Source of the DNA: a virus
Length of the DNA stretch: 64,000 nt
Reading direction: 5' to 3' (one strand)
IMG/VR virus record: IMGVR_UViG_3300044707_000140
Coordinates: 34,081-98,080 of that record
Shown: positions 2,126 to 64,000 of the stretch, piece by piece
How the letters are laid out: the number at the start of each line of letters is the position of its first letter
Position numbering within the stretch: position 1 is the first letter of the stretch
Position numbers and translations under genes: made by a program
Notes under the pieces: generated by a model
The model's database searches: none
The model's input: only the letters and a program-made list of their open reading frames with translations
Told to the model about the DNA's origin: nothing

Positions 2126-2707
2126 TTAAAGACCGCAAGGTCCTGTAGGTGTTATACTTCCACTTCCTCCAGTTTGAACAACTGTTCCAGTTTCTGCACA
2201 TATTGATATGCCACCTGAACCTACAGTTTGTGTTAAGAATTCACCTGAGCATGCAAACCACTCTATACTAATAGATGGACTACCCACCACATCATATTGT
2301 GTACAGTCTAAAGGAGCTTCTGTAGTGGTGGTGGTAGTTGTAGGTGGTGGCTCTGTAGTGGTTGTTGTAGTTGTTGTTGGAGGTACTTCTGTAGTGGTGC
2401 TTGTTGTAGTAGATGTACTAGTAGACGTACTAGTTGATGTACTTGTAGTGGTTGTAGAAGAAGTTGATGTTGTGGTGGTACACTCTCCACTTATTGTAAT
2501 ATCTATGTAATTGGTGCAAAGTGCACTATTAGACATCACCCTAATAATAGTGGTTCCATTAGGAACCAGAGATGTTGTGTATCCAGATAAAAGAGCCGCT
2601 TTACTCACACCAGTCTCGAAAGCTGATACAAACCCATCAACATCTGAGTAGAGATTGAATGGGCCTGTATCAGTTCCAGCTGTTGTTAATGTTATTGTTA
2701 CAGTCAC
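2126..2707 (-). CDS. Putative virion fibre/decoration protein with central Thr/Ser/Pro mucin-like tract
   Basis: Beta-rich N-terminal domain, about 55 aa of poly-Thr/Ser/Pro, and a small Cys-containing C-terminal domain; lies in the structural block. Confidence 0.6.
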   Translation of the reverse strand: MTVTITLTTAGTDTGPFNLYSDVDGFVSAFETGVSKAALLSGYTTSLVPNGTTIIRVMSNSALCTNYIDITISGECTTTTSTSSTTTTSTSTSTSTSTSTTTSTTTEVPPTTTTTTTTEPPPTTTTTTTEAPLDCTQYDVVGSPSISIEWFACSGEFLTQTVGSGGISICAETGTVVQTGGSGSITPTGPCGL

Positions 2708-2718
2708 AAATCAGTTGT

Positions 2719-3282
2719 TTAGACAGTGGTTGTAGTGGTAGTAGTTGTGGGAGGTGCAATTGTTGTAGTGGTAGTGGTTGTAGGTGGTGTAATCGTAGTG
2801 GTTGTTGTAGTTGTGGGACACGCTCCAAGAGTTGACAGCGTTACACCAGGGGTTGGTGGTACAACAACAGATTCTGTACAAGCACAGACGTAAATAGTAC
2901 CAAACGCACCAACCACAGCAGTTGTATAAATACCACCACAAGAATAGTAAATAATCTCTGCAGGAGTAATTGTACTGTTGTTTACAGAGTAAAACTCACA
3001 AGAAGGACATGCTATTGTAGTTGTAGTGGTTGTTGTAGAGCTAGTGCTTGTGGTAGTTGTAGTAGTTGTTAAACTATTCACCAGTGTTTGAAGAGCTGTA
3101 ATTTGACTCTGCAAATCACACACCTCAGCATCTATTTTTTGTAGAGATACAGTGACTGTATCACATGTATGAATTCCTGTACAAGGCAGGTTAGGACCAC
3201 TATAGCACACATTATCTGTTGGTGTACATGGAACATTACAGGGGTCTACAGGAGCGTAGTTAGGTTGATTGCAACAAGACAT
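2719..3282 (-). CDS. Cys-rich fibre-like structural protein with two poly-Thr tracts
   Basis: N-terminal 'CYSGPNLPCTGIHTCDTVTVSLQKID' resembles the N-terminus of the neighbouring fibre protein; followed by a coiled coil and Thr runs. Confidence 0.6.
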   Translation of the reverse strand: MSCCNQPNYAPVDPCNVPCTPTDNVCYSGPNLPCTGIHTCDTVTVSLQKIDAEVCDLQSQITALQTLVNSLTTTTTTTSTSSTTTTTTTIACPSCEFYSVNNSTITPAEIIYYSCGGIYTTAVVGAFGTIYVCACTESVVVPPTPGVTLSTLGACPTTTTTTTITPPTTTTTTTIAPPTTTTTTTTV

Positions 3283-5428: not shown

Positions 5429-6616
5429 TTACGGAATCAAAGTTGATGTAGTAGTAGTAGAAGGCCATACAGTGGTTGTGGTAGATGTAGTGGTGATACA
5501 AGAGTTATCAGCAGTTACAGTACCAAGACCAGCCTCAAGAACAGCCTCAATCAATCCACCAATTGGGTTCGCAGAACCATTGGATTGTGTTTGAGGAGTA
5601 GCAATGATTACAGTGCTGTCTTCAAAGATGTAGTCACCCCATTGATAAGTAGATTTGTCATAAGTGTTGAACTTGATGTAGTAAGTGTCATAAGTAACAC
5701 CATCACTTACCCAGCTTTCAAAGTTCTCGTTATAACCATTCATTCTGTAGAGGTGCTTCAAATATCCAGCCTGATAGCTGTAGAAGTTCTTCTCCAATTG
5801 AGCAATCTCAGCAGAAGTACCAACAGCGTAAGAAGAACGCTGAATGATTACAGGAACTGCTGCAGTGTTACAAGCATCAGCAACGATGAAGTCAGCTGTA
5901 GTTGCAGGTCCATTGATAATGAACGTACGGAACCACATGCGGTCATACTCGAAAGGAAATGCTGCCACATCACAAGGCTGACCATATTTAGTAAGAGGCT
6001 TACCAGTGATACGGAGAACAGCGTTTTGGTCGTTACCAAGTCTCTGGAACTGATAGAAGTCAGAGAAAGTGATGTTGTCAGGGTTGTTACCAGGAGCCTG
6101 ATACAGGAAGTGAAGGATGATGTCATCGATCAAAGCAGGCACATCAACAGTAGTACAAGGATCACCACCACAATCGCAACAAGGTGCATTTACAGTTACT
6201 GAACGAGTGAAACCGTTGAAGTACAGAGTGTCTAAGTAGCTAGAGTGAGCACGCAAAGTTACAGTGATAACATCACCACACTGTACGTTCCAATCTCCAA
6301 CATCTGTAATCTGAGTGATAGGAGTAGGGCAACCTTGCACCTTGTACCACTCAGTTACGTTGCTGTTGCAACCAGATCCTGAAGGACAACCTTTAATCTT
6401 ATCAGAACGCTTAGAGCCTTGCAGATAAGTGTTAGTACGGCCCTGCGCAACATAGAAATAAGGAGCAGCAGCGATGTTACCAGCTGTTGCAAGAGTGTAG
6501 TCATTGCGGAATATACCCACCTGACCTGCTGTTAAATCTTGCGTAGATCCAGAGCTAGGGAGCGCAGTTTGCCCTACTGGTACTACGAACAGCGTAGTTA
6601 ATGAAAAATCAGCCAT
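5429..6616 (-). CDS. Putative auxiliary capsid protein (crAss gene-73-like) with C-terminal Thr tail
   Basis: Third gene after the major capsid gene, as in crAss gene order; codon usage like a highly expressed gene; ends CITTTSTTTTVWPSTTTTSTLIP. Confidence 0.6.
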   Translation of the reverse strand: MADFSLTTLFVVPVGQTALPSSGSTQDLTAGQVGIFRNDYTLATAGNIAAAPYFYVAQGRTNTYLQGSKRSDKIKGCPSGSGCNSNVTEWYKVQGCPTPITQITDVGDWNVQCGDVITVTLRAHSSYLDTLYFNGFTRSVTVNAPCCDCGGDPCTTVDVPALIDDIILHFLYQAPGNNPDNITFSDFYQFQRLGNDQNAVLRITGKPLTKYGQPCDVAAFPFEYDRMWFRTFIINGPATTADFIVADACNTAAVPVIIQRSSYAVGTSAEIAQLEKNFYSYQAGYLKHLYRMNGYNENFESWVSDGVTYDTYYIKFNTYDKSTYQWGDYIFEDSTVIIATPQTQSNGSANPIGGLIEAVLEAGLGTVTADNSCITTTSTTTTVWPSTTTTSTLIP

Positions 6617-36962: not shown

Positions 36963-37361
36963 ATGAAACTAAGATATGGAGGAGATCTCCAGATAGGAGA
37001 TTTCATTATAGTCGCAAACAGTAATTACACATCCTTTGGATGGTTCTGCGGAAGAGGTCAGGGTGGTACAGTTCAGTATTATTACTTCCGTGTTCCAGCA
37101 GAAAGATATAAGACTTTTCAGGAATGGGAGGCTGGTAAGCTTCCAAATCTTAATAAATGGTACAGAGAAAAGTTTGAGAAACACGGATTTAGCTCCAAGC
37201 TATTCTATAAAGAATACATCTATGGAGGTAGTATGGATTTAAATGGATCTCGTGTTGTTAAGATAGCAGATCCAGAGAGCATATTTACACACCCAGAAGA
37301 CTTAGAAGACTACAGAAAATCAAAAGAAGCACTAATCTACATTAAATTCCCCGTAAAATGA
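36963..37361 (+). CDS. Hypothetical protein
   Basis: ORF track. Confidence 0.65.
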   Translation: MKLRYGGDLQIGDFIIVANSNYTSFGWFCGRGQGGTVQYYYFRVPAERYKTFQEWEAGKLPNLNKWYREKFEKHGFSSKLFYKEYIYGGSMDLNGSRVVKIADPESIFTHPEDLEDYRKSKEALIYIKFPVK

Positions 37362-39676
37362 TCCTAGAAAAACAGAAAGAAGCATTAGTTCACCAAGATG
37401 GTGAAGCAACAGAGTCTATAGGCATGTCCTTAGACTTAGAGTCTGCACAGGTGTTGATGCAGATGTTAAGTAAAAACTTGTATTCAGATGACATTGGTTC
37501 CACTGTTCGCGAGTGTGCCTCGAATGCACTAGATTCACACAGAAGAGCAGGGGTGGACAAACCAATTGTTGTTAGTCTACGAGCTACAAAAGACAACACA
37601 TATGAATTCTCTGTAGAAGATTTTGGTATAGGCTTAGATGCTGAGGACGTAAAGAATATCATCAGCAAGTATGGTAAGTCTACCAAGCGTAACAGCGCTA
37701 CAGAACTAGGCATGATGGGGCTAGGTTTCAAAGCCCCGCTAGCATACACATCTAGCTTTTATTTCATCTGTCGTAAGGATGGAATGGAACGCAAATACAT
37801 GATGTATGAGGGTGAAGATGTCAACACTATTGACCTTCTATATGAAGCACCCACAGATCAGCCTAATGGTGTAAAAGTTATTGTTCCTGTTAAATGGCGT
37901 GACACTTATGACTTTAAGAAAAAAATCAAACAACAGTTGGCGTATTTCGAGAGTGTTTATTTCGATGTGGAAGACATTAGAAATGACTTTTCAATCACTC
38001 GCCACAAGTATTTCCAGTTTTCTGAACTCGCTAGTGATAGCTATATGCATATCTGTCTGGATAATGTTTATTATCCTATCGATTTTGGTAAACTTGGCAT
38101 TAACAGTATATCTCTTCCTGTGGGTCTTCGATTTAGTTTGACAGATGGTATATTTCCAACTCCAAACAGGGAATCTATTCGATATACTCAGGAGGCTAAA
38201 ACTATCATTCTCAAGCGCTTACAAGAAGCTGCTGATTATTTCATTGAGAAATACAATGAAACCATCACAGATACAGATGATGTAAGGCAGATAGTGGAGT
38301 ATTTCAACTCAACCAGTAGATCGCTGAAGTTTAACAATGGATCATGGGATATACATCCTCTAGCTCAGTTTGCCACTATACAAATGGCTAAGCCTAATTT
38401 TAAGGGTACAACACTTATAGATCCAGAGCGTATCTACAAGATTCAGGAATATATCCTTAATGAGTATGAAGCTAAGTTTGTAGTGGATGGTAGAACTATG
38501 CGTGATGCTAAGCGCTATTATCAAATCACCTCTGTAAAACGTCTATATGAGAAGGTGTATGTTTATGAAGGAGAACGTGTCTCTGGACTAAAGAAAGACT
38601 ACATCAAGAGTTTACAGGCAGGTATCCATAAAGATGCTTGCGTCCTTAGGAAGGTTAAGAGTTTTCGTTTATTCCCTGCAAAAGGTAGAAGTCAGGAGTA
38701 TGATAACTACTATAACATCTTGAGACTAAGTAGTTATCCAAAGAAGCAGTGGCGTCAGCTCATCCAAGAGTTTCAGCTTATTATCAAGAGTTTGACAGAT
38801 ACATTCATTAATGTTGATACAATGGATGTACCTCAGTCTTTCATTGATTCTAGGAAGAAACAAAGAGTGACAGCTGGTAAAGCTAGTGGTACACCTGGTG
38901 TCCGTCGTGTTAAACTAAAAGGTGAGATAGTATGTAAGCAGGCTGAAGAACTAGAGCGCTGGGTACAGGGTAAGAGTTGCAAGTGGGTAAGCAAAACCTA
39001 TGACATGGCTAAGTTCCACCAGAACAAGTTCATCCTTGTATATGGTAAGCAGGAAGATACTGATGCTATGGATAAGTGGTTCAAGCCCACCAGAGGTCAC
39101 AATATTGAGCTTGCTATTCTTAGTGAGCGCGAGCTTAAAGTGGTGAGTGCAATTCAATTACATAACCTAATACCTTTTAGTAAATTTATGGAAGGAAAGA
39201 ATAAACCGTTCCAACGGATAGCTACGGCTTCTATGATTCATCAACTAACAAAGCGCTATGATGCTTCATTTGGAAAATGCGAAAGTTTTGCAACAATATC
39301 CTCTAATCTAGCTGCTAAGTTTGAAACACTTAACAAGTATAGAGAAAATCACTTCAAGTATATGGATAATGAAGTGAGAGATGCTATTGTTGAACAGGCT
39401 CAACAAATTAAAGAGTTTGATCCTGAGGTGATATCTATTGTAAATGAGGTGAAAGCTACCCTTGAGAAGTTTCCATTTATAGAAACTATCATGGAGAGCA
39501 TGAATAGGTATGAATCTGACAGGAATAAGGAGCTTCAGCAGGTGCTTATTGATCTATTCAAATACCACAAGCATAGAGTAGATTGGAAGAATTACAACAT
39601 CAAGCTAAATGAAGACCTCCCTTTAGAGGAGACGCTAACATCGGAAACTGTTGAAGAATTAGTACAACAAGATTAA
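37358..39676 (+). CDS. rIIA: rIIA-like protein (GHKL ATPase N-terminal domain)
   Basis: 'LYSD...VRECASNALDSH', 'EDFGIG', 'STKR', 'GMMGLGFK' and 'PNRESI.YT'. Confidence 0.82.
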   Translation: MILEKQKEALVHQDGEATESIGMSLDLESAQVLMQMLSKNLYSDDIGSTVRECASNALDSHRRAGVDKPIVVSLRATKDNTYEFSVEDFGIGLDAEDVKNIISKYGKSTKRNSATELGMMGLGFKAPLAYTSSFYFICRKDGMERKYMMYEGEDVNTIDLLYEAPTDQPNGVKVIVPVKWRDTYDFKKKIKQQLAYFESVYFDVEDIRNDFSITRHKYFQFSELASDSYMHICLDNVYYPIDFGKLGINSISLPVGLRFSLTDGIFPTPNRESIRYTQEAKTIILKRLQEAADYFIEKYNETITDTDDVRQIVEYFNSTSRSLKFNNGSWDIHPLAQFATIQMAKPNFKGTTLIDPERIYKIQEYILNEYEAKFVVDGRTMRDAKRYYQITSVKRLYEKVYVYEGERVSGLKKDYIKSLQAGIHKDACVLRKVKSFRLFPAKGRSQEYDNYYNILRLSSYPKKQWRQLIQEFQLIIKSLTDTFINVDTMDVPQSFIDSRKKQRVTAGKASGTPGVRRVKLKGEIVCKQAEELERWVQGKSCKWVSKTYDMAKFHQNKFILVYGKQEDTDAMDKWFKPTRGHNIELAILSERELKVVSAIQLHNLIPFSKFMEGKNKPFQRIATASMIHQLTKRYDASFGKCESFATISSNLAAKFETLNKYRENHFKYMDNEVRDAIVEQAQQIKEFDPEVISIVNEVKATLEKFPFIETIMESMNRYESDRNKELQQVLIDLFKYHKHRVDWKNYNIKLNEDLPLEETLTSETVEELVQQD

Positions 39677-39679
39677 ACA

Positions 39680-39710
39680 AAAAAAGGGGGACTAAAAATC
39701 CCCCTTTATT
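39680..39710 (+). terminator. Terminator-like hairpin
   Basis: AAAGGGGGA-CTAAAAA-TCCCCCTTT. Confidence 0.55.
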
Positions 39711-39731
39711 AAACATTTTAAAAACAAAAAC

Positions 39732-41270
39732 ATGTTAAGCCTAAATTGGTTCAAATCAAGAAAACAAAGAGAACTAGAAGAATTACAAGTGGAGGAGCAA
39801 AGAATAAAGAATGAGCTCCTGAGAAAAGAATTATATCAAGCGTCATTTGCAACATCTGCAACATCAGCTCCTGTAGAAAAGACCTACAACTGGACTGTTA
39901 ACACCACATCCACTCCAACAGTAAGTGTAAAACCTTACAAAACTGTGAAGATGGTGAATGATGTACTAACTGTCGTACTAAATGATGGATCTGTACTATC
40001 TAAACCTGGTGCTACATCAGATGATTTCATTGCTGCTCGTAATGCTACAGATGAGGTGGATATCCTAAATGTTGTAGCTACACAAGAGATTGTTACAGAA
40101 AGGAGAAGACAAGAGTTTGAAGCTGAGAAAGCCAGAGCTCTACAGGCTGGTATTAAACTCCTGTCCAATCTACATGATTTCAAAGTGGAGGGAACTAGTG
40201 TCTATCTGAAGGGTATCAATCGCACATTACCACAGCTGCTGGTAGAAGAATTCTTGCGTATTGTTAACTATTATAATGTAAGTGGTTACAGATTTCAAGG
40301 AGATATTGAGACAGCTCTTGAAGAAGATGCTGAATATCAATCTCTTAAGCGCTTCTTTATGTGGTGCTGTCTAAATCCACGTGCTGAAGTGGCTGACAAG
40401 CTATACAACTTCCTCAAGAGGAATAGCTTCAAAATCACCAAGCAGGGATTCTTTGTAGCACTTCGTAACGTGGTAACACTCCATGGATCTACAGAGCTGG
40501 TCCAGTTTGTATCTAATGCATACAACAAGGTGAAAGCTGTATGGAAGAAGAGCCCAGATGCATATGAGGTGTATCTAAAGGATGGTCAGTATAGCTTTAT
40601 TCATATCGATGACACTTACACTACAGAACTAATGGAAGGTGAAGAGTGGTATGATGAGGAGATTGAGGAATATGTTACATCTGAAGATGAGGAAGTGAGT
40701 GTAAAGAGATCTGATCTGGGTGAATTGATTGGTAATCTGACAGACCTTTATCTAGACCTACCAAACCGTGCAGAGAATCGTTTTACAGATGCTCACACAC
40801 AAACATTTGATATTCGTATTGGTAGACCAGTGAACATGGACCCAGGTGCATGTCGTTGGAATACAGACGATTGTGGTGCAGAAGGTTTGCATTTCACAGC
40901 TAATGAGATTCACTATGTAGGATGTGGTGATCAGTCTGTACTGGTGTTAATTAATCCTATGAAGGTTGTGGGTATTGGTGAGAGTAAGGGTAGATGCTGG
41001 GAATATCTCCCTATCATGACTGTTCCTCGTGAGGAGGCTACAGAAATCCTACATGATCTAGACTTTGACACATTGCAACTGGATGATAGTTACGCCATCC
41101 GTGAGTTGGAGAGCTTGACAGACAAAGCTAAAGAAGGTTTTGTTGCTGAGTCTAGAAAGCATGAGTTTAACATTCCTCACATTTCCACTGTAGAGATTGA
41201 AAACATTGTTGCCTCTTTGGACAACATGAAGGATGAAATCAGCTCTAGAGTTCAGATGATTGTTGATTAA
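39732..41270 (+). CDS. rIIB: rIIB-like protein
   Basis: Follows rIIA; 'ITKQGFFVALR', 'FTDAHT', 'CGAEGLH', 'INPMKVV' and 'KGRCWEY'. Confidence 0.78.
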   Translation: MLSLNWFKSRKQRELEELQVEEQRIKNELLRKELYQASFATSATSAPVEKTYNWTVNTTSTPTVSVKPYKTVKMVNDVLTVVLNDGSVLSKPGATSDDFIAARNATDEVDILNVVATQEIVTERRRQEFEAEKARALQAGIKLLSNLHDFKVEGTSVYLKGINRTLPQLLVEEFLRIVNYYNVSGYRFQGDIETALEEDAEYQSLKRFFMWCCLNPRAEVADKLYNFLKRNSFKITKQGFFVALRNVVTLHGSTELVQFVSNAYNKVKAVWKKSPDAYEVYLKDGQYSFIHIDDTYTTELMEGEEWYDEEIEEYVTSEDEEVSVKRSDLGELIGNLTDLYLDLPNRAENRFTDAHTQTFDIRIGRPVNMDPGACRWNTDDCGAEGLHFTANEIHYVGCGDQSVLVLINPMKVVGIGESKGRCWEYLPIMTVPREEATEILHDLDFDTLQLDDSYAIRELESLTDKAKEGFVAESRKHEFNIPHISTVEIENIVASLDNMKDEISSRVQMIVD

Positions 41271-49068: not shown

Positions 49069-49364
49069 AAAACCAATTCTTCTACACTCGTAAGGAACTA
49101 AAGAGTGGTACACCAGAAAACCCTGTGTATAATGAGTTCCGTGACAGTTTTAACATTAACAAGGTGATTCGTTCTGTAGCCATTGAGGACGGACGTGTAA
49201 TGATCTTGTTAGATGACCTGCATGAGCGTGCTCAAGAGGTTCCTGATATTGATCCTCGTACTAACAAGGTGAAAGGTGTAAAGCGCCAAAAGAACACCTT
49301 TCAGAGTGAAATCTATCTAGAGGGAGAAGATGTACAAAAATTTTATGATGCAACATCAATCTGA
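49065..49364 (+). CDS. Hypothetical protein
   Basis: Coupled ORF. Confidence 0.6.
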   Translation: MKNQFFYTRKELKSGTPENPVYNEFRDSFNINKVIRSVAIEDGRVMILLDDLHERAQEVPDIDPRTNKVKGVKRQKNTFQSEIYLEGEDVQKFYDATSI

Positions 49365-50127
49365 ACTACCGTTTATAAGCTGTAAATGCATCACTTACGG
49401 TAGGGTGGATACGCTTGAGGAGAGTTTAAATGCTTTCCTCAAGCAGGACTATCCTGCTGATAAGTGTGAGCTGGTGATAGTTAATGACTATCCTATGCAA
49501 AAGTTACTATTTGAACATCCACAGGTGAAAATCCATAATATGGATTATACCTTTAGCACCATTGGTGACAAGGAAAACTATGCTACAGATCTTTGTAATG
49601 GAGACATCATCTGCCAGTGGGATGATGATGATGTAGCTGTTCCGTGGCACCTCAATAATGTAGCTAAATACTTCACAGACGATGTGAACATTATGCATTG
49701 GAATCCAGGAGTGTTCTATAATGGTGATAGCATCACTGATATTACATGGATAGGTAATTCTGGTATTGTGTTCAGGAAGTCTGCATGGGAAGCTATTGGT
49801 AAACATCCTATAGAGAATGCTGGATATGATATGACATTCATAGAGCGTCTACATGCTTATGGTGGAAGACTGTTTGCAACGCCTCCTAAGGAAGAAGCTA
49901 GTTGGTTTTATATGTGGGGTGGCAGAGGTTATCACATGTCTGGACAAGGACATGATAAGCCTGGTCAACCAAACGTAATACAAAGACACAGCGCACACAT
50001 TGAGAACATGAGAATTCAGGGTAAGATACCTACAGGAGAAATCCAACTCAATCCAAATTGGAAATACGATTACACTCAAATGCTAAAAGACTATGTTAGT
50101 AGACTTCATAATCCCGACGTACAATAG
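49345..50127 (+). CDS. Glycosyltransferase family 2 (GT-A)
   Basis: 'ISCKCITYGR...QDYP...VIVND...GDIICQWDDDD'; start could be 49330, 49345 or 49348. Confidence 0.8.
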   Translation: MMQHQSELPFISCKCITYGRVDTLEESLNAFLKQDYPADKCELVIVNDYPMQKLLFEHPQVKIHNMDYTFSTIGDKENYATDLCNGDIICQWDDDDVAVPWHLNNVAKYFTDDVNIMHWNPGVFYNGDSITDITWIGNSGIVFRKSAWEAIGKHPIENAGYDMTFIERLHAYGGRLFATPPKEEASWFYMWGGRGYHMSGQGHDKPGQPNVIQRHSAHIENMRIQGKIPTGEIQLNPNWKYDYTQMLKDYVSRLHNPDVQ

Positions 50128-50659
50128 ACCAGCTCCTTTAAAATGCATGCTGGCTTCTCTTGTTGCACAAACTAATCCAGACTGGGGAGCACATGTTGTA
50201 ATTGACAATCCTGAGGATGAGGATAATGTAAAGCTTGTAGAAAGCTTTAACGATCCTAGAATCCGTTGGTCTAAGATGGATAAGCGTTATAATGACTGGG
50301 GTCACACTCCAAGAGAATATGGAAAGCAAAAGAGTGAGGCTAAATACATCATTATGACAGGTGATGACAACTATTACACACCTAACTTCCTACAAGAAAT
50401 ATCTGTTCTATGTAACGTAGAGGTGGGTATGGTGTACTGGGATATGGTGCATTCACATTACAACTATGCATATTTTAAATGCGTTCCTGCAGGAGGACAA
50501 ATTGATATGGGAGCATTTGCTACACGTAGAGATCTTGCCCAACAGATTGAATTAGGAACAGACTTTGCTGCTGATGGATGGTTCGTAGAACAGTTTAAAC
50601 AGAAGTTTCCAATAGAGAACATTTCTAAGATTAACAAGGTCTTATTCGTACACAACTAA
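50093..50659 (+). CDS. Glycosyltransferase family 2 (GT-A)
   Basis: 'FIIPTYNRP...AQTNPDW...GDDNYY...IDMG...ADG'. Confidence 0.8.
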   Translation: MLVDFIIPTYNRPAPLKCMLASLVAQTNPDWGAHVVIDNPEDEDNVKLVESFNDPRIRWSKMDKRYNDWGHTPREYGKQKSEAKYIIMTGDDNYYTPNFLQEISVLCNVEVGMVYWDMVHSHYNYAYFKCVPAGGQIDMGAFATRRDLAQQIELGTDFAADGWFVEQFKQKFPIENISKINKVLFVHN

Positions 50660-50663
50660 TTTT

Positions 50664-51209
50664 ATGGGAAGACTTACAGATATTGCCAACCGTCAGGAGA
50701 CTGATAAAGGCACAGAACATTTTGAAAAACATGGCTATACAGAAGTGTATGACCAGTACATTCCTGAAGCTGGGAAGTTTAAGCTCCTCGAGATAGGAAT
50801 CTATCATGGGGATTCTCTAAGGATGTGGGAAGAATATAACCCAGAACTAGAGATCCATGCGCTAGATATAGATGAGAACATCAACAGGTGGATACAACAA
50901 CCTAATCCCTATCACATATACATTGGAGATCAAACAAGTCCCTCTATGATAGATGAGATTGCTAAGAACGGTGGTCCATTTGACTTCATTATAGATGATG
51001 GAAGTCATGTAGGCCAGCACATTACAGCATCGTTCAAGATGTTGTGGCAGCATCTAAAGCCTGGAGGATATTATTTCATTGAAGACCTGCACGCAGGACA
51101 TGCTAATAGGCAAGAGACCATTAAAATTGTTACAGAGTTTATAGCTGGTCAGTCCTATTTCATGACTCTAATGCTCGATGCAAAGCTTCTTATTATTGAG
51201 AAACGATGA
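50664..51209 (+). CDS. Class I SAM-dependent sugar O-methyltransferase-like protein
   Basis: 'TDK...H.Y...Y', 'LLEIGI..GDSL.MW', 'FDFIIDDGSH' and 'LKPGGYYFIEDL' (MycE/CmcI-like pattern). Confidence 0.8.
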   Translation: MGRLTDIANRQETDKGTEHFEKHGYTEVYDQYIPEAGKFKLLEIGIYHGDSLRMWEEYNPELEIHALDIDENINRWIQQPNPYHIYIGDQTSPSMIDEIAKNGGPFDFIIDDGSHVGQHITASFKMLWQHLKPGGYYFIEDLHAGHANRQETIKIVTEFIAGQSYFMTLMLDAKLLIIEKR

Positions 51210-54435: not shown

Positions 54436-54710
54436 TTTATTTCAAAGGTGATTGTAGCAGAGCTTTTAATAGACTTAGATAGATTGAGCTTTATCTTGAA
54501 GATGTTATGTAGTTTTAGTATCTCTTCGAGCAGCATTTCATTATACTTAGGCAGGCTAGGAGCCAGTCTAAAATGATATGAGTGTGGGTTCTTGATTATC
54601 TCAAGGGAAGACAATTCATCCACTGAGTTAATTACTCCCTCTAGATGAGCAAAATAAGCAAGTTCGTTATCAGCCATCACCTCAGGGAAGAACCTCTTAC
54701 TAATTGTCAT
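54423..54710 (-). CDS. Hypothetical protein
   Basis: Coupled to the upstream gene (TAATG). Confidence 0.6.
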   Translation of the reverse strand: MTISKRFFPEVMADNELAYFAHLEGVINSVDELSSLEIIKNPHSYHFRLAPSLPKYNEMLLEEILKLHNIFKIKLNLSKSIKSSATITFEINLDN

Positions 54711-55123
54711 TAGGACAGGGTTAACAGGTATTTAGTTTTTGCAGCTTCTCCAGATAGGGCATCAGCCAGATTAGAAATGTCATGGTATCCGTTGCTCTCA
54801 CCAAAACTCTTAAGGCTTGAGGCGAAACTCATAAGCTCGCTCACAACAATAGTTGCATTTGCTGTATCTGATAGAGGTTCCATCTTAGGTGCTTTGGGAC
54901 GCTTGCCCATATAGCCCATGAGCTTCTCAATCACCCCATCCTTAAAGTCATGTACATAATCGTATAGTCCACCAAGAGCTTGGTGTTCTGCATAACTCTG
55001 TGTAGTCCAATGTAATAGATGTAATTGCTCATGAAAGTAGGTGAGCTTTCCAGCAATGCCTTCAAGTGTCATCTCACCACTTCCACTCTTCAGCATGTCT
55101 GAAGGAAATAATGATTTTGCCAT
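54710..55123 (-). CDS. Dps/ferritin-like four-helix protein (DUF5856-like)
   Basis: 'HLLHW...YAEHQALGGLYD...D...E..MG' and C-terminal 'KYLLTL'. Confidence 0.7.
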   Translation of the reverse strand: MAKSLFPSDMLKSGSGEMTLEGIAGKLTYFHEQLHLLHWTTQSYAEHQALGGLYDYVHDFKDGVIEKLMGYMGKRPKAPKMEPLSDTANATIVVSELMSFASSLKSFGESNGYHDISNLADALSGEAAKTKYLLTLS

Positions 55124-55134
55124 TGTTTAGTTTT

Positions 55135-55365
55135 TTAGCGAGCTGTGGTAGTCGTGGTGGTTGTAGCAGGCACAGTGGTAGTAGTGGTTGTTGTAGGAGC
55201 ACTACTTGTAGTAGTTGTAGTTGTTGGATTACAACACTCGTACGCATCAATCTCTTGCCAATTACCCACCTTAGGCTTAAAACGTTGAAGAATCAAGCTT
55301 CCAGCAATAACACGTCCTGTACCATCGTAACGAACGTATGCTTTTAATTTATTATTAGTTGCCAT
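55135..55365 (-). CDS. Small protein with C-terminal poly-Thr tail (paralog A1)
   Basis: 46-aa domain 'LKAYVRYDGTGR...ECCNP' followed by TTTTTTSSAPTTTTTTTVPATTTTTTTAR. Confidence 0.7.
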   Translation of the reverse strand: MATNNKLKAYVRYDGTGRVIAGSLILQRFKPKVGNWQEIDAYECCNPTTTTTTSSAPTTTTTTTVPATTTTTTTAR

Positions 55366-55375
55366 ATGTTAAGTT

Positions 55376-55615
55376 TTATCCACCAGTTGTGGTTGTGGTT
55401 GTTGTGGTAGGAGCTACAGTGGTAGTGGTAGTAGTTGTACTACTGCTACTAGTTGTAGTGGTTGTTGTAGGATTGCAGCATTCATAAGCTGGAATTTCTA
55501 CCCACTTACCTACCTTGGGTTTCTTTCTTCTAAGAATTAGGCTGCTGGGAACTATTCTCCCAGTACCATCAAAGCGTACGAAGGCTTTAAGAGGGCGATT
55601 GTCAATTGTGGCCAT
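55376..55615 (-). CDS. Small protein with C-terminal poly-Thr tail (paralog A2)
   Basis: 'LKAFVRFDGTGR...ECCNP' followed by a Thr/Ser tail. Confidence 0.7.
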   Translation of the reverse strand: MATIDNRPLKAFVRFDGTGRIVPSSLILRRKKPKVGKWVEIPAYECCNPTTTTTTSSSSTTTTTTTVAPTTTTTTTTGG

Positions 55616-55617
55616 GA

Positions 55618-56634
55618 TTAATAATTAAGATTGTATTTATTAGATAATTTTTTAAGCTCGTTTGCGTAAAACCATGTGCAGCGTTTCTGTGATTTCTCAT
55701 CATTTAACACTACATCTAAATGAGGATCTTTAGTTGGGTCACCACTTGCATGGTATTTACCCTTATAAAAGCAGGCATATCCATCCATCTGTGTTCCTAC
55801 AATACCTGCGTTATGAAAAATAGGATGGGTTTTTAGTTTTTCAAGTGGATCAGGAGCCCATGAGAATCCCATCTCATCAATCACCTTCACCTCTTTTTCT
55901 TTCACCCACAGGTTCCACAGAACAGCCCACATATCAGCGCACCAGCTCTGGAATCCCCTATCCTCGCTTTCAAAGAATTCTTTGTTTATCTTCTGAAGGT
56001 AGCTTCTAATCAGGATGCAATCATTCATCACCTTGCCCCAGAAAGCTGCATCTATGTTCTTAAGGAGGTATTGTGCACCACCTGAATCTTTGTCTTTTTG
56101 CTCAGCTTCCTCTCTACTAATCCCAATCACACTGCCTATCTCAGCAAGGATGTCCCTGGTTTTATACTCTTCCAGTTTCTCAGGAAGTACATCTTTCACC
56201 TTACTGTCAAAATATGCAGCTCCTATGTAACTCTGTGTATCAGATAGATAACATACATCGTCATCTATAAACTTTTGAATATCAAAGTGTTCTGTAAACA
56301 GAATATCTGAATCACAGTAGAAGATTGCCTTATCACTGAGACTTGGGTTTTCTTTCCAGTGTCTCCACAGGGTGTATGGTCTAAGCACTGGGATGTATAT
56401 ACCTAACAGAGAGCTTACATCATCCTTGTCTTTGTAGAAGTGGAATTCAGCTTCTGGATAGAGTTTCATCACTTGTTCCCATTTGGGATTTTGTTCCCTA
56501 TAACTAGGGATGAAGATGAGAACAATCGCCTTATCAGACTCATTTCTGTTCCTAAGGCTTTCTAACCAAAGATGCACCTGCCATGTGTAATACGTATCAT
56601 CTGGCTGAACACAGACATACTTAAGATCCTTCAT
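55618..56634 (-). CDS. GT-A glycosyltransferase resembling plant HPAT/SRGT1 (GT95/GT96) protein O-glycosyltransferases
   Basis: Ordered motifs YYTWQ, YIPVLRP, CDSDIL (DxD), GGAQYL, WCADMWA and HNAG. Confidence 0.7.
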   Translation of the reverse strand: MKDLKYVCVQPDDTYYTWQVHLWLESLRNRNESDKAIVLIFIPSYREQNPKWEQVMKLYPEAEFHFYKDKDDVSSLLGIYIPVLRPYTLWRHWKENPSLSDKAIFYCDSDILFTEHFDIQKFIDDDVCYLSDTQSYIGAAYFDSKVKDVLPEKLEEYKTRDILAEIGSVIGISREEAEQKDKDSGGAQYLLKNIDAAFWGKVMNDCILIRSYLQKINKEFFESEDRGFQSWCADMWAVLWNLWVKEKEVKVIDEMGFSWAPDPLEKLKTHPIFHNAGIVGTQMDGYACFYKGKYHASGDPTKDPHLDVVLNDEKSQKRCTWFYANELKKLSNKYNLNY

Positions 56635-56660
56635 ATGTAGTTTTGTTGGTTTAATTCGTT

Positions 56661-56810
56661 CTATCCAGGGGATGTCGTAGTAGTTGTTGTGGTTGTGAAG
56701 TTGTTATTCAAATCACAAAGCTGGCAGGAAATACCCTCCAGCTGCTTGGCTATTTGCCATAACAAGTTCTCTGTTGTACCCCAACCTATTCCTCTTGATG
56801 GTATTGGCAT
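56661..56810 (-). CDS. 49-aa protein with poly-Thr tail (paralog B1; not in ORF track)
   Basis: MPIPSRGIGWGTTENLLWQIAKQLEGISCQLCDLNNNFTTTTTTTTSPG*. Confidence 0.7.
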   Translation of the reverse strand: MPIPSRGIGWGTTENLLWQIAKQLEGISCQLCDLNNNFTTTTTTTTSPG

Positions 56811-56812
56811 TA

Positions 56813-57970
56813 TTAATAAGTTTTATTCAATATGAAAATATCACTGTATATACTATTACCTGCGCTAGCCGCACCCCACTGAACAGTGACATCTAATGTG
56901 TTACTGATTGTTGTATCAAAGGTGGTGCTATTAACTGTGTTAAACGCAAAACCCTCAACAACACCATTCACCGTTTTAGTGTAGTGGAATCCACCTAAAG
57001 TGACAATTGATGCTACACCAGCAGCTCCTAATTGTCTAATGGTGAAATCTATATTTAAATTAAACACATTGTTTGTGATGTTTGTAATGGGCTGAGCTCC
57101 ACTGTCAAGTAGGATGACAGCACCTGTCTTCACTCTAACTCTTATTGTTTGGTTGTTTGTAGCATTTAGAATTCCACCAAACACAGCTCTAAAGCTATCT
57201 CCTACACTAAATCCATTAGCTGGTACAGTTAATGTACCTACACCACCATTAATAAGACTGCTTTCTACAGTGGTGTTAGTGATTATAGTGCTGTTTGCTG
57301 TTTGAGCAAAAAGTCCATAATTCACTGATGTTGGGAGTGCTGCAGATGTACCTGATGATCCACTAGTGCCAGATGTGCCATTAACACCAGAACTACCCGA
57401 TGTACCGTTCACTCCAGATGAACCGCTAGTTCCAGTAGTTCCACTGGTACCCGTGGTACCAGAACTTCCACTAGATCCAGACGTACCAGTTGTACCGCTT
57501 GTTCCTGATGTTCCTGTACTACCTGATGTTCCAGAAGTACCAGAAGATCCATCTCCTCCAGCTGCTCCATCAAGATTCACTGTCCAAGAAGAATATGTAC
57601 CACTTCCTGTTACAGAAACAGGACCACCAATCACCATTACACCAGTAACAATGTCATAACTCACCACTGTACAAGTTTGGTGATTACCAACATTGTATGT
57701 TATAATGATGTCTTGAGCTGGTGTATAAGCTAGCCCAGGCTCAACAACTATATTAGTGCTTACACCTAGTGTAAAGGTAGTGGTGGATGTAGTTCTAAAT
57801 CTATCTCCTGAATATCCAGAGGTACCACTAGTGCCAGATGTTCCTCCAAAGGTTTCAATGTTATCGTTAAGCGTACAGAGCTGACAGCTAGCTTGCTCCA
57901 TTTGTTTAGCAATCTGCCACAGCAGGTTATCCTGTGTGCTCCAGCCTATCTGTCTTGAAGGAATTGGCAT
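56813..57970 (-). CDS. Fibre-like protein with (GTS/GSS)n repeats (paralog B2)
   Basis: N-terminus shared with B1; Gly at every third residue in G-T/S-S/T repeats; beta-rich C-terminal head. Confidence 0.7.
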   Translation of the reverse strand: MPIPSRQIGWSTQDNLLWQIAKQMEQASCQLCTLNDNIETFGGTSGTSGTSGYSGDRFRTTSTTTFTLGVSTNIVVEPGLAYTPAQDIIITYNVGNHQTCTVVSYDIVTGVMVIGGPVSVTGSGTYSSWTVNLDGAAGGDGSSGTSGTSGSTGTSGTSGTTGTSGSSGSSGTTGTSGTTGTSGSSGVNGTSGSSGVNGTSGTSGSSGTSAALPTSVNYGLFAQTANSTIITNTTVESSLINGGVGTLTVPANGFSVGDSFRAVFGGILNATNNQTIRVRVKTGAVILLDSGAQPITNITNNVFNLNIDFTIRQLGAAGVASIVTLGGFHYTKTVNGVVEGFAFNTVNSTTFDTTISNTLDVTVQWGAASAGNSIYSDIFILNKTY

Positions 57971-58431: not shown

Positions 58432-59175
58432 TTATTTTTTATCCTCTTGGGTTGCATACTTAATACCCATAATTGTTCCTACTATTGAGAAGGCATTGGT
58501 TAGCAATACGCTAAACATATTAGACCAAGTTGACCCAATAATCTGCGTATCCTTGTTTGACAATATTGCGAATGAGTACATTATGGTTGTAATAAATCCG
58601 ACACTAATAATAACCGCTAAAGCACACTTGACAATCGTTTTAATTAATTCGTTTTGACTTTTCTTTAGAGTTGCATCCAAGTCATCCAAAGCAGCATTCT
58701 TTTCTATCTCTATTGCATCTTTTAGCTTGTTAGAATTGTCTAACTCTATTTGCAAGCTCTTAGATAGTTCGTTTATTTTGTTTTTGCTAACAACAGTTTC
58801 ACTGATGTCAGTAGCTATCTTCATTATCTTAGTGATGTTGCCACTTTCGTCGAATATAGGGTTGTAGGTTGCTTGTAGATAGATAGAAGAACCATCTATC
58901 TTCTTTCTCTCAAACTCACCTTCAAAAAACTTTCCCAACCTTAGCGTTTCCCAAAACTTCACATAGTCATCTGACTTGCTATACTCGTAACTAACAAAAA
59001 TGCTATGGTGCTTCCCGATTAACTTATCGTGCTCATCTTCTGCGAATCCCATTGCCTTTAAAAAGATTGCATTAACCCCAAGAATAAACCCATTGAGATC
59101 AAAGTAGATGATGGCATTACTACGATTAATAGCCTCCATCCTACTCAGTAGCTCTTCTTTACTGAGGTTCTTCAT
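58432..59175 (-). CDS. PAS/PAC-domain protein with coiled coil and two C-terminal TM helices
   Basis: 'AINRSNAIIYFDLNG.IL..N..FL..MG...LIGKHHSIFV...FWETL..G....GEFER....G...LQATYNPI.D..G...KIMKIATDI' is the chemoreceptor/BdlA-type PAS pattern. Confidence 0.85.
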   Translation of the reverse strand: MKNLSKEELLSRMEAINRSNAIIYFDLNGFILGVNAIFLKAMGFAEDEHDKLIGKHHSIFVSYEYSKSDDYVKFWETLRLGKFFEGEFERKKIDGSSIYLQATYNPIFDESGNITKIMKIATDISETVVSKNKINELSKSLQIELDNSNKLKDAIEIEKNAALDDLDATLKKSQNELIKTIVKCALAVIISVGFITTIMYSFAILSNKDTQIIGSTWSNMFSVLLTNAFSIVGTIMGIKYATQEDKK

Positions 59176-59416
59176 CGTTATTTCCTTTTGTCTTGTTAAT
59201 CCATTTATCTACAGAAGCTATTCCAAAAGCTCCCAGTACAATTATCATGAATCCATCAAATATGAATTGGTGGATGGGCATTTCTCTACCCAGAATACCA
59301 GTGATAAGATCTGTAATCAGAGCTACCACCATCATGAGGAAGGCAATAAATCCAACCACAGCTTTCTCATTAATAGAGTTGTTGTCGTTAAATAAATCGT
59401 GTAAAAACTTTTTCAT
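59159..59416 (-). CDS. Holin-like two-TM protein
   Basis: Two hydrophobic helices and a charged C-terminus; next to the endolysin. Confidence 0.6.
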   Translation of the reverse strand: MKKFLHDLFNDNNSINEKAVVGFIAFLMMVVALITDLITGILGREMPIHQFIFDGFMIIVLGAFGIASVDKWINKTKGNNDEEPQ

Positions 59417-60015
59417 GCTAATAAATTGTAATATTCTTTAAAATGTTTGATACGATCAGCCAGACCAATTGTACCACCATTTACACGCTTAGTCACCTCA
59501 GTGACTACAGTGTCTGTAGCACCCTTGTCAGCTATTTTGTGTAATCCATTTTTATGGAAAAACCATGCTGCAGAAAGGAGGGGATATTTGCTAGCCACCA
59601 ACTCTGGATTAGCTAGGATGTCCTCAGGAACTACAGCATCAAATGCTTTGTAGTTATCCTTTCCTGTAAGCTGGATGTAACCTCTTCCACGGAACTTAAA
59701 TCCTTCACCAGAGGCCTCAGGACCGTTACCCATTCTTCCTCCATATACTAGATTAGCAATCTTTTCAGGCTTACGCTCATATTCCTTAGCTTTAGCTTCT
59801 GTAGGGAAATACTTCTTAAAGATGGATAGGAGCCCTTTAGCTCCATAATTCAGGTTTTCATTCACCACCTTAAACCCACCAGATTCATGTCCTGCTTGGG
59901 CTAAGAAATGGGCTAGTTTAACGGGGGTGTTTAGTTCAAATTTGGAGATGGTATCAGGTAGCTGAGCTATTACAGCATCAGGAATGTGACCTTTAAGTTT
60001 TTCTATATTTAACAT
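59413..60015 (-). CDS. Endolysin, glycoside hydrolase family 19
   Basis: 'AHFLAQAGHESG', 'ENLNY', 'FRGRGYIQLTGKDNY' and 'TKRVNGGTIGLADR'. Confidence 0.9.
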   Translation of the reverse strand: MLNIEKLKGHIPDAVIAQLPDTISKFELNTPVKLAHFLAQAGHESGGFKVVNENLNYGAKGLLSIFKKYFPTEAKAKEYERKPEKIANLVYGGRMGNGPEASGEGFKFRGRGYIQLTGKDNYKAFDAVVPEDILANPELVASKYPLLSAAWFFHKNGLHKIADKGATDTVVTEVTKRVNGGTIGLADRIKHFKEYYNLLA

Positions 60016-61764: not shown

Positions 61765-61813
61765 CAAATCTATGAAAAAGTTTTGAAACTACCAAATATT
61801 TTTTCTACCTTTG
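61765..61813. promoter_or_regulatory. Overlapping divergent Bacteroidota-type promoters
   Basis: Minus strand: TTTG (61796-61793)-N20-TAGATTTG (61772-61765). Plus strand: TTTG (61782)-N20-TACCTTTG (61806-61813). Confidence 0.7.
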
Positions 61814-61833
61814 GGACAGAAAATCAAGTGGTT

Positions 61834-64000
61834 ATGCCCAATAGTTATGACTATTTCAAGCAGGATGTAAGACAGTGGTTTATAGATAATGTTCCCTTAA
61901 GCAAAAGAATCTTAGATGTGGGTCCTGGACAGGGCACTTATTCAGAGCTCCTAAGAGACCTAGGATATAGAATAGATGCTGTGGAGGTGTTTGCTCCCTA
62001 CGTGGATAGGTTTGACCTGCGAGATAAATATGACAATGTTTACATAGCTAACATCCTAAATTTTGATGTAAAACCCTATGACTTCATCATCCTAGGGGAT
62101 GTGCTAGAACACATTCCTACAGAGCTAGCCCAAAACTTGCTTACAGATTTTGATTTAATGGACAAGAGGTTTCTAGTGGCTGTACCCTATATGATGCCTC
62201 AGGATGGTGAGCAGTATGGGAATGAATATGAAACCCACCATCAGCCAGATCTCACTCCACAGGTGATAGCAAAACGCTATCCAGGACTAGTGAAGCTGTA
62301 TGATAACCAGTGGTATGGATATTATGTAAATGAGGATGTTAGATGGGAAAAAGCCTATGTGCTCTATGCTACAGAGAGCTATAAAGAAACTGTCCAAGCC
62401 TGTGTAGATTCTATTAAGACATTCAGTGATATTCCTGTTATAGTGTATATGCTGAATTCAGATGTGAATATTAATGGTGCAGCCACCTTTCGCTGGACCT
62501 GTAAAATCAAAGACATACCACAACAGAAATATATTGACAGATCTAATAGTGACATCTATAACATCCTTATACAGCGTCCACTAATTGTTAAAGATGCATT
62601 AACACATGCCAAAATAGTGGCTTATGTAGATAGTGATAGTGTTGCCACCAAGTATATAGACAGGATATTTAGCTTCTTCTCACCCAAGAGTTCCTATCCC
62701 TATTTTACAGAAGGGATATATGACTGGATGATACTCAATGGTAGAGGTGGGGCTGATAGTAGAGATGATATGTCAGGCACCCTTGAACATCCAGCCTGTG
62801 AGCTGTTTGGTGTGGACCAATACATCAGGGATAAATACAGACAGACAGGATATTTTGTAGCTGGTGATTGGTGTATAGACTTCTTAGATGAGTGGGCATG
62901 GATGTGCAATCATCCTAGAGTGTTACAGAACCCACAATATTATGCTCCCTATCACGAAGAAACTATAGCTAATGTGCTTCTATGGAAATACAAAGCTTTT
63001 AGTGGACTGCCATACATATACATCAATGGATCCTTAGACATGGTGAATAATTTAACGTTCACAGGTAGGAAGCAACACACCAACCATTTTGTTGCTGTGC
63101 CTGCTGTTGAGAATCAACTGCTATTCTACCATGGAGAGAAGGATGCTGTCACTATGTACAGGATGATAGAGCGCCAGAAGAACCAGCTGAGAGTGTTGTT
63201 TGTAGCTCCTCACCTATCTACAGGTGGTATGCCTGCATTCCTTCTAGAGAGAATCAAAGACCTAATTAAATACACCAACACTAGAATCATTGTGGTGGAA
63301 TATGCCAATCACAGTGATCATTATGTAGTGCAGAAAAAACAGATAAAAGAATTAGCCCACCACTTCTACACACTAGGAACTGATAAACTAGAGATAGTGG
63401 ATATTATTAAAAGACATGCTGTAGATATAGTGCACATAGATGAGATGGTGGAAGATGGGCATAATAACTGGCCAGAAGAGGTGAGAGAAGCTTTATATAG
63501 TCCAGATAGAACATGGAGAGTGATTGAAACATGTCATAACATTATATTCAAACCAGATATTGAGAAGCGCTATCACCCAGATGCATATGCATTCTGTACT
63601 CCTTTCCATCTCAAGACATTTGCTAATATGCCTTCTAGAAAAGAGGTGATAGAATATCCTATTGTAAGGAAAAACAGTGCACCTATGATAGGATGGGGAC
63701 CTGGAAAACATGTGCTCAATGTAGGACTATGGACTCCTGGAAAGAATCAAGGAGAAGCTGTAGAGCTAGCTAGACAAATGCCAGATGTAACATTTCATTT
63801 TGTAGGAAATCAAGCAGGCAACTTCCAGCATTATTGGGAACCTATTATGAAAGACCTACCTCCTAATGTACATGTGTGGGGAGAAAGAGATGATATAGAT
63901 GGATTTATGGCAGCTGCAGATGCGTTCCTATTCAACAGCACATTTGAATGTAATCCACTAGTGATTAGAGAAGCTATAGGACATGGGCTACCAATTCTAG
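61834..64000 (+). CDS. Multidomain protein: SAM methyltransferase + GT-A glycosyltransferase + GT4 (GT-B); 3' end lies outside the window
   Basis: Open for 722 codons to the window end and missing from the track. 'ILDVGPGQG...GDVLEH'; 'AYVDSDS...HEETIAN...YHGEK'; 'VLFVAPHLSTGGMP...VGLWTPGKNQ...FECNPLVIREA' (EX7E). Confidence 0.85.
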   Translation, partial: MPNSYDYFKQDVRQWFIDNVPLSKRILDVGPGQGTYSELLRDLGYRIDAVEVFAPYVDRFDLRDKYDNVYIANILNFDVKPYDFIILGDVLEHIPTELAQNLLTDFDLMDKRFLVAVPYMMPQDGEQYGNEYETHHQPDLTPQVIAKRYPGLVKLYDNQWYGYYVNEDVRWEKAYVLYATESYKETVQACVDSIKTFSDIPVIVYMLNSDVNINGAATFRWTCKIKDIPQQKYIDRSNSDIYNILIQRPLIVKDALTHAKIVAYVDSDSVATKYIDRIFSFFSPKSSYPYFTEGIYDWMILNGRGGADSRDDMSGTLEHPACELFGVDQYIRDKYRQTGYFVAGDWCIDFLDEWAWMCNHPRVLQNPQYYAPYHEETIANVLLWKYKAFSGLPYIYINGSLDMVNNLTFTGRKQHTNHFVAVPAVENQLLFYHGEKDAVTMYRMIERQKNQLRVLFVAPHLSTGGMPAFLLERIKDLIKYTNTRIIVVEYANHSDHYVVQKKQIKELAHHFYTLGTDKLEIVDIIKRHAVDIVHIDEMVEDGHNNWPEEVREALYSPDRTWRVIETCHNIIFKPDIEKRYHPDAYAFCTPFHLKTFANMPSRKEVIEYPIVRKNSAPMIGWGPGKHVLNVGLWTPGKNQGEAVELARQMPDVTFHFVGNQAGNFQHYWEPIMKDLPPNVHVWGERDDIDGFMAAADAFLFNSTFECNPLVIREAIGHGLPIL

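Follow-up and report, generated by a model that had tools for sequence, protein, structure and literature searches.

To our knowledge, glycosylation of phage virions has been demonstrated experimentally in a few mycobacteriophages only, where it is reported to blunt antibody recognition. The virions of Che8, Corndog, and Myrna are glycosylated, and glycosylation of the capsid requires the glycosyltransferases (GTs) Che8 gp110 and Corndog gp38 (PMC12363180, citing Freeman et al. 2023); a second source places the glycans at the C-termini of capsid and tail-tube subunits (PMC12619734). Here, we analyzed a stretch of viral DNA comprising the final 64 kb of the 98,080-bp IMG/VR record IMGVR_UViG_3300044707_000140 (hereafter the window; its end is the end of the record), in which a gene for a soluble GT of 338 amino acids (aa) stands among small genes for proteins with long threonine tails. 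We found the enzyme and the poly-Thr tails to be coupled across distant phage groups, and we consider it probable (roughly 0.7), from the comparison of genes and genomes, that the 338-aa protein is the initiating O-glycosyltransferase for virion poly-Thr proteins, analogous to the system of mycobacteriophage Che8.

A Glycosyltransferase Gene among Poly-Thr Genes

The five open reading frames (ORFs) at window positions 55135-57970 all lie on the minus strand and are densely packed, with gaps of 2-26 nt. The arrangement described in an initial annotation of the window, a soluble 338-aa protein amid small Thr-rich genes, was confirmed in the ORF list, in which the gene at 55618-56634 is flanked by those of three poly-Thr proteins and a fiber protein. 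Additional poly-Thr proteins, absent from that annotation, are encoded at 2126-2707, 2719-3282, and 5429-6616 and by a 1,684-aa ORF upstream of the window, which has four poly-Thr runs close to its C-terminus. The enzyme and its putative acceptors in the window are as follows.

55618-56634, minus strand: soluble protein of 338 aa with a GT-A glycosyltransferase fold, proposed to initiate protein O-glycosylation on poly-Thr tracts (PHROG 4417; AlphaFold2 model; Foldseek and VIA-align matches; invariant residues)
55376-55615, minus strand: 79-aa protein with an N-terminal beta domain and a poly-Thr/Ser tail (T6S4T7...T8 runs), proposed acceptor
55135-55365, minus strand: 76-aa paralog of the 79-aa protein (73% identical; three T6-7 runs), proposed acceptor
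56661-56810, minus strand: 49-aa protein ending in T8-SPG, with an N-terminus paralogous to that of the fiber, proposed acceptor
56813-57970, minus strand: 385-aa collagen-like tail-fiber protein with G-(T/S)-S triplets (Pfam Collagen; tail-fiber PHROGs), possible further acceptor
5429-6616, minus strand: 395-aa structural-module protein, encoded between genes for virion structural and tail proteins and carrying TTTSTTTT...STTTTST as a C-terminal tail, proposed acceptor
2719-3282, minus strand: 187-aa Cys-rich protein with four poly-Thr runs, adjoining a tail-fiber gene, proposed acceptor
2126-2707, minus strand: 193-aa protein with Thr runs (a 30-residue T/S run, T8, and T7), proposed acceptor

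In the 49-, 79-, and 76-aa products, a short N-terminal part precedes runs of 6-8 Thr with few Ser. The tracts are encoded by mixed ACA, ACT, ACC, and ACG codons, which speaks for their maintenance by selection on the amino acids and against slippage of the DNA. Among 46 relatives of the 79-aa protein, the N-terminal 48 residues are strongly conserved, with 14 invariant positions including C46-C47, and the domain ends in YECCNP, while the tails vary in length and composition. The AlphaFold model of the 79-aa protein has a small beta domain at residues 10-41, with a predicted local distance difference test score (pLDDT) of ~86, and a disordered tail. The 49-aa and 385-aa proteins have their first ~35-38 residues in common, and this N-terminal domain suggests that the small protein docks at the same site as the fiber; we infer that the small Thr-tail proteins are present on the phage particle. 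The (GTS/GSS)n repeats of the 385-aa protein, for which the initial annotation had used the label of a mucin-like carrier, match instead the G-X-Y type of the Pfam Collagen triple-helix repeat (E = 2e-12) and tail-fiber PHROGs (down to E = 4e-9), and the protein is for this reason better described as a collagen-like fiber.

Coupling of the Enzyme to Poly-Thr Tracts

Using an alignment of 16 sequences as the query, we retrieved IMG/VR loci around relatives of the GT and scanned all ORFs for Thr runs, defined as at least 6 S/T residues with at least 5 T. In three distant phage groups, the ORFs containing such runs were 25- to 80-fold enriched within 1.5 kb of the GT or exclusive to this interval.

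Window-like phages (63-91% identity): 79 of 80 loci with such an ORF within 1.5 kb; 0.81 per kb near the GT and 0.010 per kb beyond 2.5 kb
Enterococcus phiFL1-type prophages: 77 of 80 loci with such an ORF within 1.5 kb; 0.47 per kb near the GT and 0 in 523 kb beyond 2.5 kb
Chryseobacterium-phage-like and jumbo phages: 13 of 23 loci with such an ORF within 1.5 kb; 0.21 per kb near the GT and 0.008 per kb beyond 2.5 kb

Some of the misses in the last group had (PTTV)n tails on two upstream proteins or an S/T-rich capsid C-terminus. The usual gene order in the window-like phages was fiber, Thr-tail protein of ~48 aa, GT, and one or two Thr-tail proteins of ~70-80 aa; a short Thr-tail ORF was found directly upstream of the GT in 45 and directly downstream of it in 44 of the 80 related loci.

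The initial annotation had inferred a glycan coat on the virion, and in the other lineages the proposed acceptors are indeed virion proteins, with Thr tails on capsid, tail-tube, immunoglobulin (Ig)-domain, and other structural proteins. In Enterococcus phage phiFL1A, the tail-tube protein gp50 (locus L002:3345-4001) has the C-terminus N-G-T5-S-T6-SS-T7 and the capsid protein gp45 (L002:960-1955) the C-terminus T5-KP-T5-KP-T7; the GT gene is located inside the tail morphogenesis operon, with the tail tube on one side and chaperone genes on the other. In Lactobacillus phage Semele, a small protein made up largely of Thr repeats is encoded upstream of the GT, and both upstream proteins in Chryseobacterium phage MA9V-3 contain long Thr/Ser runs. 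At other loci, the neighbor that bears the Thr run is a major head protein, a virion structural protein, or a structural protein with an Ig domain.

We then compared the presence of the GT with that of the tails among close orthologs, fetching phiFL1A-type loci by the N-terminal domain of the tail tube alone. This resulted in 27 loci of 65-100% identity. The tail tube had a poly-Thr C-terminus in all 12 loci with a GT downstream and in none of the 15 loci lacking it, where all 15 orthologs end soon after a conserved G-E-T-T-G-D-Y motif. The capsid orthologs, encoded five genes upstream, behaved alike: a poly-Thr tail was present in 12/12 cases with the GT and in 0/13 without. A Fisher test on the tail-tube counts (12/0 versus 0/15) gives a probability of ~6e-8, which is only indicative as the loci are related. 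Tailed and tailless states occurred within the same identity classes, and the trait has therefore been gained or lost several times. The L181-type capsid, tried as a second lineage for the same comparison, recovered only the same three contigs. The initial annotation had tied the function of the GT to its Thr-rich neighbors and had set an independent distribution of the two beforehand as refuting; what we observe is the opposite, with GT and tails co-varying, and the coupling is strong.

Fold and Sequence Family of the Enzyme

The 338-aa protein matches PHROG 4417 (E = 1e-53), annotated as of "unknown function." A Pfam scan gave no match at E ≤ 1, and a sequence search of the Protein Data Bank (PDB) by phmmer and profile gave no meaningful match. 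The family is large, consisting of 2,605 clusters at 90% identity (E ≤ 1e-3) and 750 representatives at 50% identity, and it is spread in phages of Bacteroidota and Bacillota, with phiFL1A, VPE25, LP65, 1706, and bIL285 among the carriers. Homologs were found in 77 isolated phages, namely phages of Lactobacillus, Enterococcus, Staphylococcus, Lactococcus, and Clostridium, and Chryseobacterium phage MA9V-3. Fused relatives carry GT2, GT6, GT29, GT32, GT25, GT61, methyltransferase, and radical-SAM domains, combinations that look like multistep glycan builders. In the searchable literature, whose coverage leaves out most subscription journals, we found no description of the enzyme family, nor any of poly-Thr tails serving as sites of glycosylation in phages.

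All five motifs named in the initial annotation are present: Y15-x-x-W18-Q19, Y80-x4-R85-P86, D108-S-D110, G185-G-A-Q188-Y-L, and W231-C-A-D234-M-W. These catalytic-type motifs sit on invariant or near-invariant columns of the family alignments. Across 63 diverse members, Y80, D108, D110, Y136, F257, H274, and K291 are invariant and Q188 and Q229 nearly so; D108 and D110, which form a DxD motif after the central strand (residues 103-107), are also invariant in 74 further members. The protein has no N-terminal hydrophobic or membrane segment, and the first strand of the fold begins at residue 4.

An AlphaFold model built from the 63 members reached a mean pLDDT of 97.3. The top Foldseek matches in the PDB were UGGT (GT24), WbbM, glycogenin (GT8), alpha-1,3-galactosyltransferase (GT6), and XXYLT1, with E ~1e-5 and a probability of 1.00. 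A VIA-align run against 48,161 PDB chains gave the highest Z scores to LgtC (GT8; 13.9), glycogenin (13.9), the Skp1 alpha-galactosyltransferase (13.8), UGGT (13.0), LARGE1 (12.7), and GlyE (12.6), with aligned lengths of 209-252 residues for LgtC, glycogenin, Skp1 alpha-galactosyltransferase, UGGT, and GlyE; PBCV-1 A64R reached 10.7 in the same run. In BFVD, the close matches were only uncharacterized phage proteins and LP65 Orf49, with viral GT8-like proteins coming next. The model and both structure searches thus bear out the claim of a soluble GT-A protein with a DxD motif, and the predicted structure places it in the retaining GT8/GT24/GT6 neighborhood.

At the sequence level, as judged by profile comparison, the protein belongs to none of these families. 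Glyco_transf_8 (PF01501) found no match at E ≤ 1 in the 63 members and none at E ≤ 0.01 in 74 more. In hhalign comparisons with Escherichia coli WaaJ and WaaO, the probability was only 1-5%, around the DxD strand, which aligns with the L-D-A-D motif of these enzymes.

Proposed Mechanism

We propose that the 338-aa protein acts in the cytoplasm as a metal-dependent GT-A glycosyltransferase, probably retaining and using a UDP-sugar donor. It would place the first sugar on the hydroxyls of contiguous Thr (and Ser) residues in the disordered poly-Thr tracts, before or during assembly of the particle. In the window phage, the acceptors would be the three small domain-plus-Thr-tail proteins flanking the GT; at least four more proteins of the structural module have Thr tracts that are further candidates. 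While the fold, the catalytic-type motifs, and the linkage of enzyme and poly-Thr tails in genomes come directly from the analysis, the transfer to Thr, the donor sugar, the anomeric outcome, and the roles of the other GTs are inferred.

These other GTs are encoded elsewhere in the genome and may lengthen and methylate the sugar. The initial annotation had noted GT and methyltransferase genes near 49.3-51.9 and 61.8 kb, and domain matches identify them as follows.

49330-50127, plus strand: GT2-domain protein (Glycos_transf_2, E = 8.6e-7), putative glycan-extending enzyme
50093-50659, plus strand: GT2-domain protein (Glycos_transf_2, E = 4.1e-9), putative glycan-extending enzyme
50664-51209, plus strand: Methyltransf_24 protein, with the same domain as Che8 gp108, putative sugar O-methyltransferase
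61783-63999, plus strand: ORF running off the end of the contig, with a methyltransferase domain at the N-terminus and a GT1 (GT-B) domain at the C-terminus, putative extending enzyme

By analogy with Che8, it is plausible that the enzymes at 49-51 kb and 61.8 kb extend the same glycan. A much broader idea, which we put forward tentatively and consider doubtful as a whole, is that of a portable "mucin module": a single GT-A family that turns any Thr-tailed structural protein into a densely O-glycosylated virion filament, also glycosylates exported ribosomal peptides of Bacteroidota, and is the prokaryotic and viral sister of the plant extensin-glycosylating families GT95 and GT96.

Alternative Targets and Kinships

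Several points weigh against virion poly-Thr proteins as the targets. The family is known from sequence comparison and predicted structure alone, the counts of loci are not phylogenetically independent, and the completeness of the genome record is estimated at only 85%. Some phage members have no Thr-rich neighbor, such as those at loci L165-167 and that at L179 in a 385-kb phage; the chromosomal long forms (see below) are all without one, and the acceptor is therefore not always poly-Thr. Finally, the fold does not prove a protein acceptor because its neighbors include lipooligosaccharide enzymes such as LgtC.

The best surviving alternative starts from the same points and holds that the enzyme glycosylates a nonprotein target, such as a host envelope polysaccharide, teichoic acid, lipopolysaccharide (LPS), or the phage DNA, the poly-Thr stretches being mere flexible linkers nearby. 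Serotype-converting prophage GTs modify host envelope glycans, and WbbM and other glycan-building GT8-type enzymes stand beside LgtC among the best folds. Modification of DNA or O-antigen by phage GTs is also well known (PMC12619734 and references therein). A view of the tracts as linkers does not, however, predict what is seen among close orthologs, where the poly-Thr tails of capsid and tail tube, two separate genes, come and go with the GT. The placement of the phiFL1A GT within the tail morphogenesis operon and the lack of a membrane segment in the 338-aa protein also speak against an envelope or other nonprotein target, which we consider unlikely. DNA glycosylation was rejected as the main explanation, as the genome contains no Tet/JBP-like gene and no thymidylate-synthase/dCMP-hydroxymethylase-like gene to supply a hydroxymethyl base.

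A different question is whether the enzyme is an ortholog-level member of the plant families of hydroxyproline arabinosyltransferases (HPAT, GT95) and peptidyl-serine galactosyltransferase (SGT1, GT96), acting on hydroxyproline (Hyp) or Ser with the Thr tracts being secondary. The initial annotation had pointed to the motif order of these plant enzymes, and this part of its claim stands: the order is present and conserved in the phage family. Among the 63 members, 2 matched the HPAT model PF23452, the best being P0267 (E = 1.3e-4), whose residues 9-242 are collinear with model positions 9-230 of 307. HPAT was the only GT family approached by more than one member of this set, with a single member showing a weak match to Glyco_transf_34. 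Of the 30 named language-model neighbors, 20 lie in clusters with 10-58% PF23452 carriers, followed by DUF7164, GT6, and GT8.

The link to HPAT itself is weak. The match of P0267, at 21.9 bits, stays below the Pfam cut-off of 23.9; no match at E ≤ 1 was obtained for the window protein and none for the 74 further members, leaving 135 of the 137 sampled members without one. With P0267 as the query, we recovered 85 relatives, none labeled PF23452; a search with the PF23452 model of the window genome and of five phage records and five bacterial genomes found nothing, but it was uninformative, as the control genomes were silent as well. HPATs are Golgi type II membrane proteins (PMC8012813), whereas the phage enzyme lacks an N-terminal anchor, and the tracts adjoining it consist of Thr rather than of Pro/Hyp or Ser-Pro repeats. 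Among solved structures, the best folds belong to GT8, GT24, and GT6, the LPS-type LgtC included. The initial annotation had named such an outcome as refuting, but it cannot decide the kinship here because no HPAT or SGT1 structure is among the PDB matches. A remote relation to HPAT is possible, while membership in HPAT is not established and, at the level of orthology with HPAT or SGT1, appears quite improbable to us.

We give very little credence to the last alternative, that the collagen-like fiber is the main acceptor, its G-(T/S)-S triplets being glycosylated like the GPT repeats in the O-glycosylated collagen-like region of BclA of Bacillus anthracis, with no part for the small poly-Thr proteins. 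In its favor, the fiber is encoded two genes upstream of the GT and has its N-terminal domain in common with the 49-aa poly-Thr protein, but the constant partner across lineages is the poly-Thr tract and not the collagen repeat, and the loci of the Enterococcus, Lactobacillus, and Chryseobacterium phages have poly-Thr proteins without any collagen-like neighbor.

Chromosomal Relatives

Longer homologs of 450-710 aa were found in the chromosomes of Chitinophaga, Sphingobacterium, Pedobacter, and Elizabethkingia. In the one copy checked (L198), a weak second GT-type domain, Glyco_transf_7C, was detected. A LanC-like protein is encoded beside the long GT in all three loci examined (L196:4163-10603, L198:2403-8827, and L201:5995-8117); a C39-peptidase ABC exporter is present at L196 and L198, an HlyD protein at L198, and a Cys/Thr-rich peptide of 100 aa with a GG leader at L196. 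In their gene content, these loci look like clusters for exported, modified (candidate glycosylated) ribosomal peptides, and this context independently suggests polypeptide substrates for the GT family.

A different arrangement was seen in Chitinophaga sp. YR573 (L191:4066-7321), with two tandem GT homologs of 272 and 351 aa. They are flanked by a 327-aa protein with a short T/S run and by a 94-aa protein, the N-terminus of which is like that of the window 79-aa protein (K-A-F-I-K-Y ... CC).

The Source Phage

The window includes genes for a portal, large terminase (TerL), major head protein, DNA polymerase, RIIA/RIIB, and ribonucleotide reductase. The TerL is 41% identical to that of Leptolyngbya phage Lbo-JY46, 34% to those of Cellulophaga phages phi17:2 and phi4:1, and 25-28% to those of crAss-like phages. 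The tag "crAss-like" given in the initial annotation thus applies in a distant sense only, the identity to crAss-like and Cellulophaga phages being 25-34%. The nearest GT copies in binned genomes, with 60-66% identity, are on contigs of metagenome-assembled genomes from Cytophagales, Saprospiraceae, and Sediminibacterium, a hint that the host of the phage may belong to Bacteroidota.

Some other features of the genome are worth recording. Upstream of the window (genome G000, 930-32592) lie giant ORFs of 2,019, 4,308, 869, 1,088, and 1,684 aa. RIIA- and RIIB-like genes are found at 37358-41270 of the window, in a phage whose terminase is distantly related to those of crAss-like phages and Cellulophaga podophages. 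At 58432-60015, a 247-aa PAS-domain protein is encoded beside a 200-aa protein that matches glycoside hydrolase family 19 and is a likely endolysin; it is unusual for a lysis cassette to include a sensor (PAS) domain. The next gene downstream of the Thr-tail genes, in the same operon at 54710-55123, encodes a 137-aa DUF5856 protein that matches a PHROG annotated as "starvation-inducible transcriptional regulator."

Implications

Our results point to a testable rule for a family of ~2,600 clusters annotated as of unknown function: where the gene is present, Thr tails are to be expected on capsid, tail, or fiber proteins. Its carriers are freshwater Bacteroidota phages as well as phages from gut and dairy settings whose hosts are Enterococcus, Lactobacillus, Lactococcus, Staphylococcus, and Clostridium; several of these phages are in culture. 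If the proposed function is true, it would bear on the contact of phage particles with mucus, host polysaccharides, proteases, and antibodies and on the reading of cryo-electron microscopy maps and proteomes of the carrier phages, and it would add to the protein O-glycosyltransferases that can serve as tools. Unexplored natural products of Bacteroidota, in the form of glycosylated peptides, are suggested in turn by the relatives in chromosomes.

Comparison with Known Systems

Several of the retaining GT-A enzymes have protein acceptors, namely glycogenin, UGGT, the Skp1 enzyme, and GlyE, whose substrate is a serine-rich repeat adhesin. The 338-aa protein is like GT8, GT24, GT6, and the Skp1 alpha-galactosyltransferase in its overall fold and in the DxD motif after the fourth strand but differs from the retaining GT-A families in having ~80 extra residues as helical insertions. 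GT8 enzymes have the motif H-x-x-G-x-x-K-P-W, which the H-x-x-G...F-x-K of the phage family, with its invariant His and Lys, resembles, a likeness with no residue-level alignment behind it.

With the plant HPAT and SGT1 enzymes, the phage enzyme has the proposed task in common, which would be the addition of the first sugar to hydroxy-amino-acid runs of repetitive structural proteins. It is soluble, whereas theirs are Golgi type II proteins, and its tracts consist of Thr and theirs of Hyp or Ser.

Known glycocin-cluster glycosyltransferases belong to GT2, which sets them apart from the chromosomal clusters of the long homologs, where LanC-like genes are present and of which none has been characterized. 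The C39-peptidase ABC exporter and the GG-leader peptide beside the long homologs, on the other hand, are as in glycocin clusters, for example that of enterocin F4-9 (PMC8620827).

The closest parallel is to Che8. In both systems, phage-encoded cytoplasmic GTs decorate, or in our case would decorate, the C-termini of capsid and tail-tube proteins. In the phiFL1A-type prophages the two Thr-tailed proteins are, as in Che8, the capsid and the tail tube. Che8 gp108 is a fusion of GT2 and Methyltransf_24 and gp109 a GT2 protein (L233:4172-6042), and the window has the same domain kit at 49330-51209. The differences concern the candidate initiating enzyme and the design of the acceptor. Che8 gp110 is GT25-like and unrelated to the window family (hhalign probability 0.07%), and the 77 phage records in which a homolog of the window GT was found include none from a Mycobacterium phage. 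The Che8 capsid ends in ...KTGS and the tail tube in ...SDGS, with no poly-Thr tract in either. As far as can be judged from the genes, the logic is the same as in the virion glycosylation of Che8, and most likely we are looking at a widespread form of phage virion glycosylation with an enzyme family and an acceptor unlike those of Che8.

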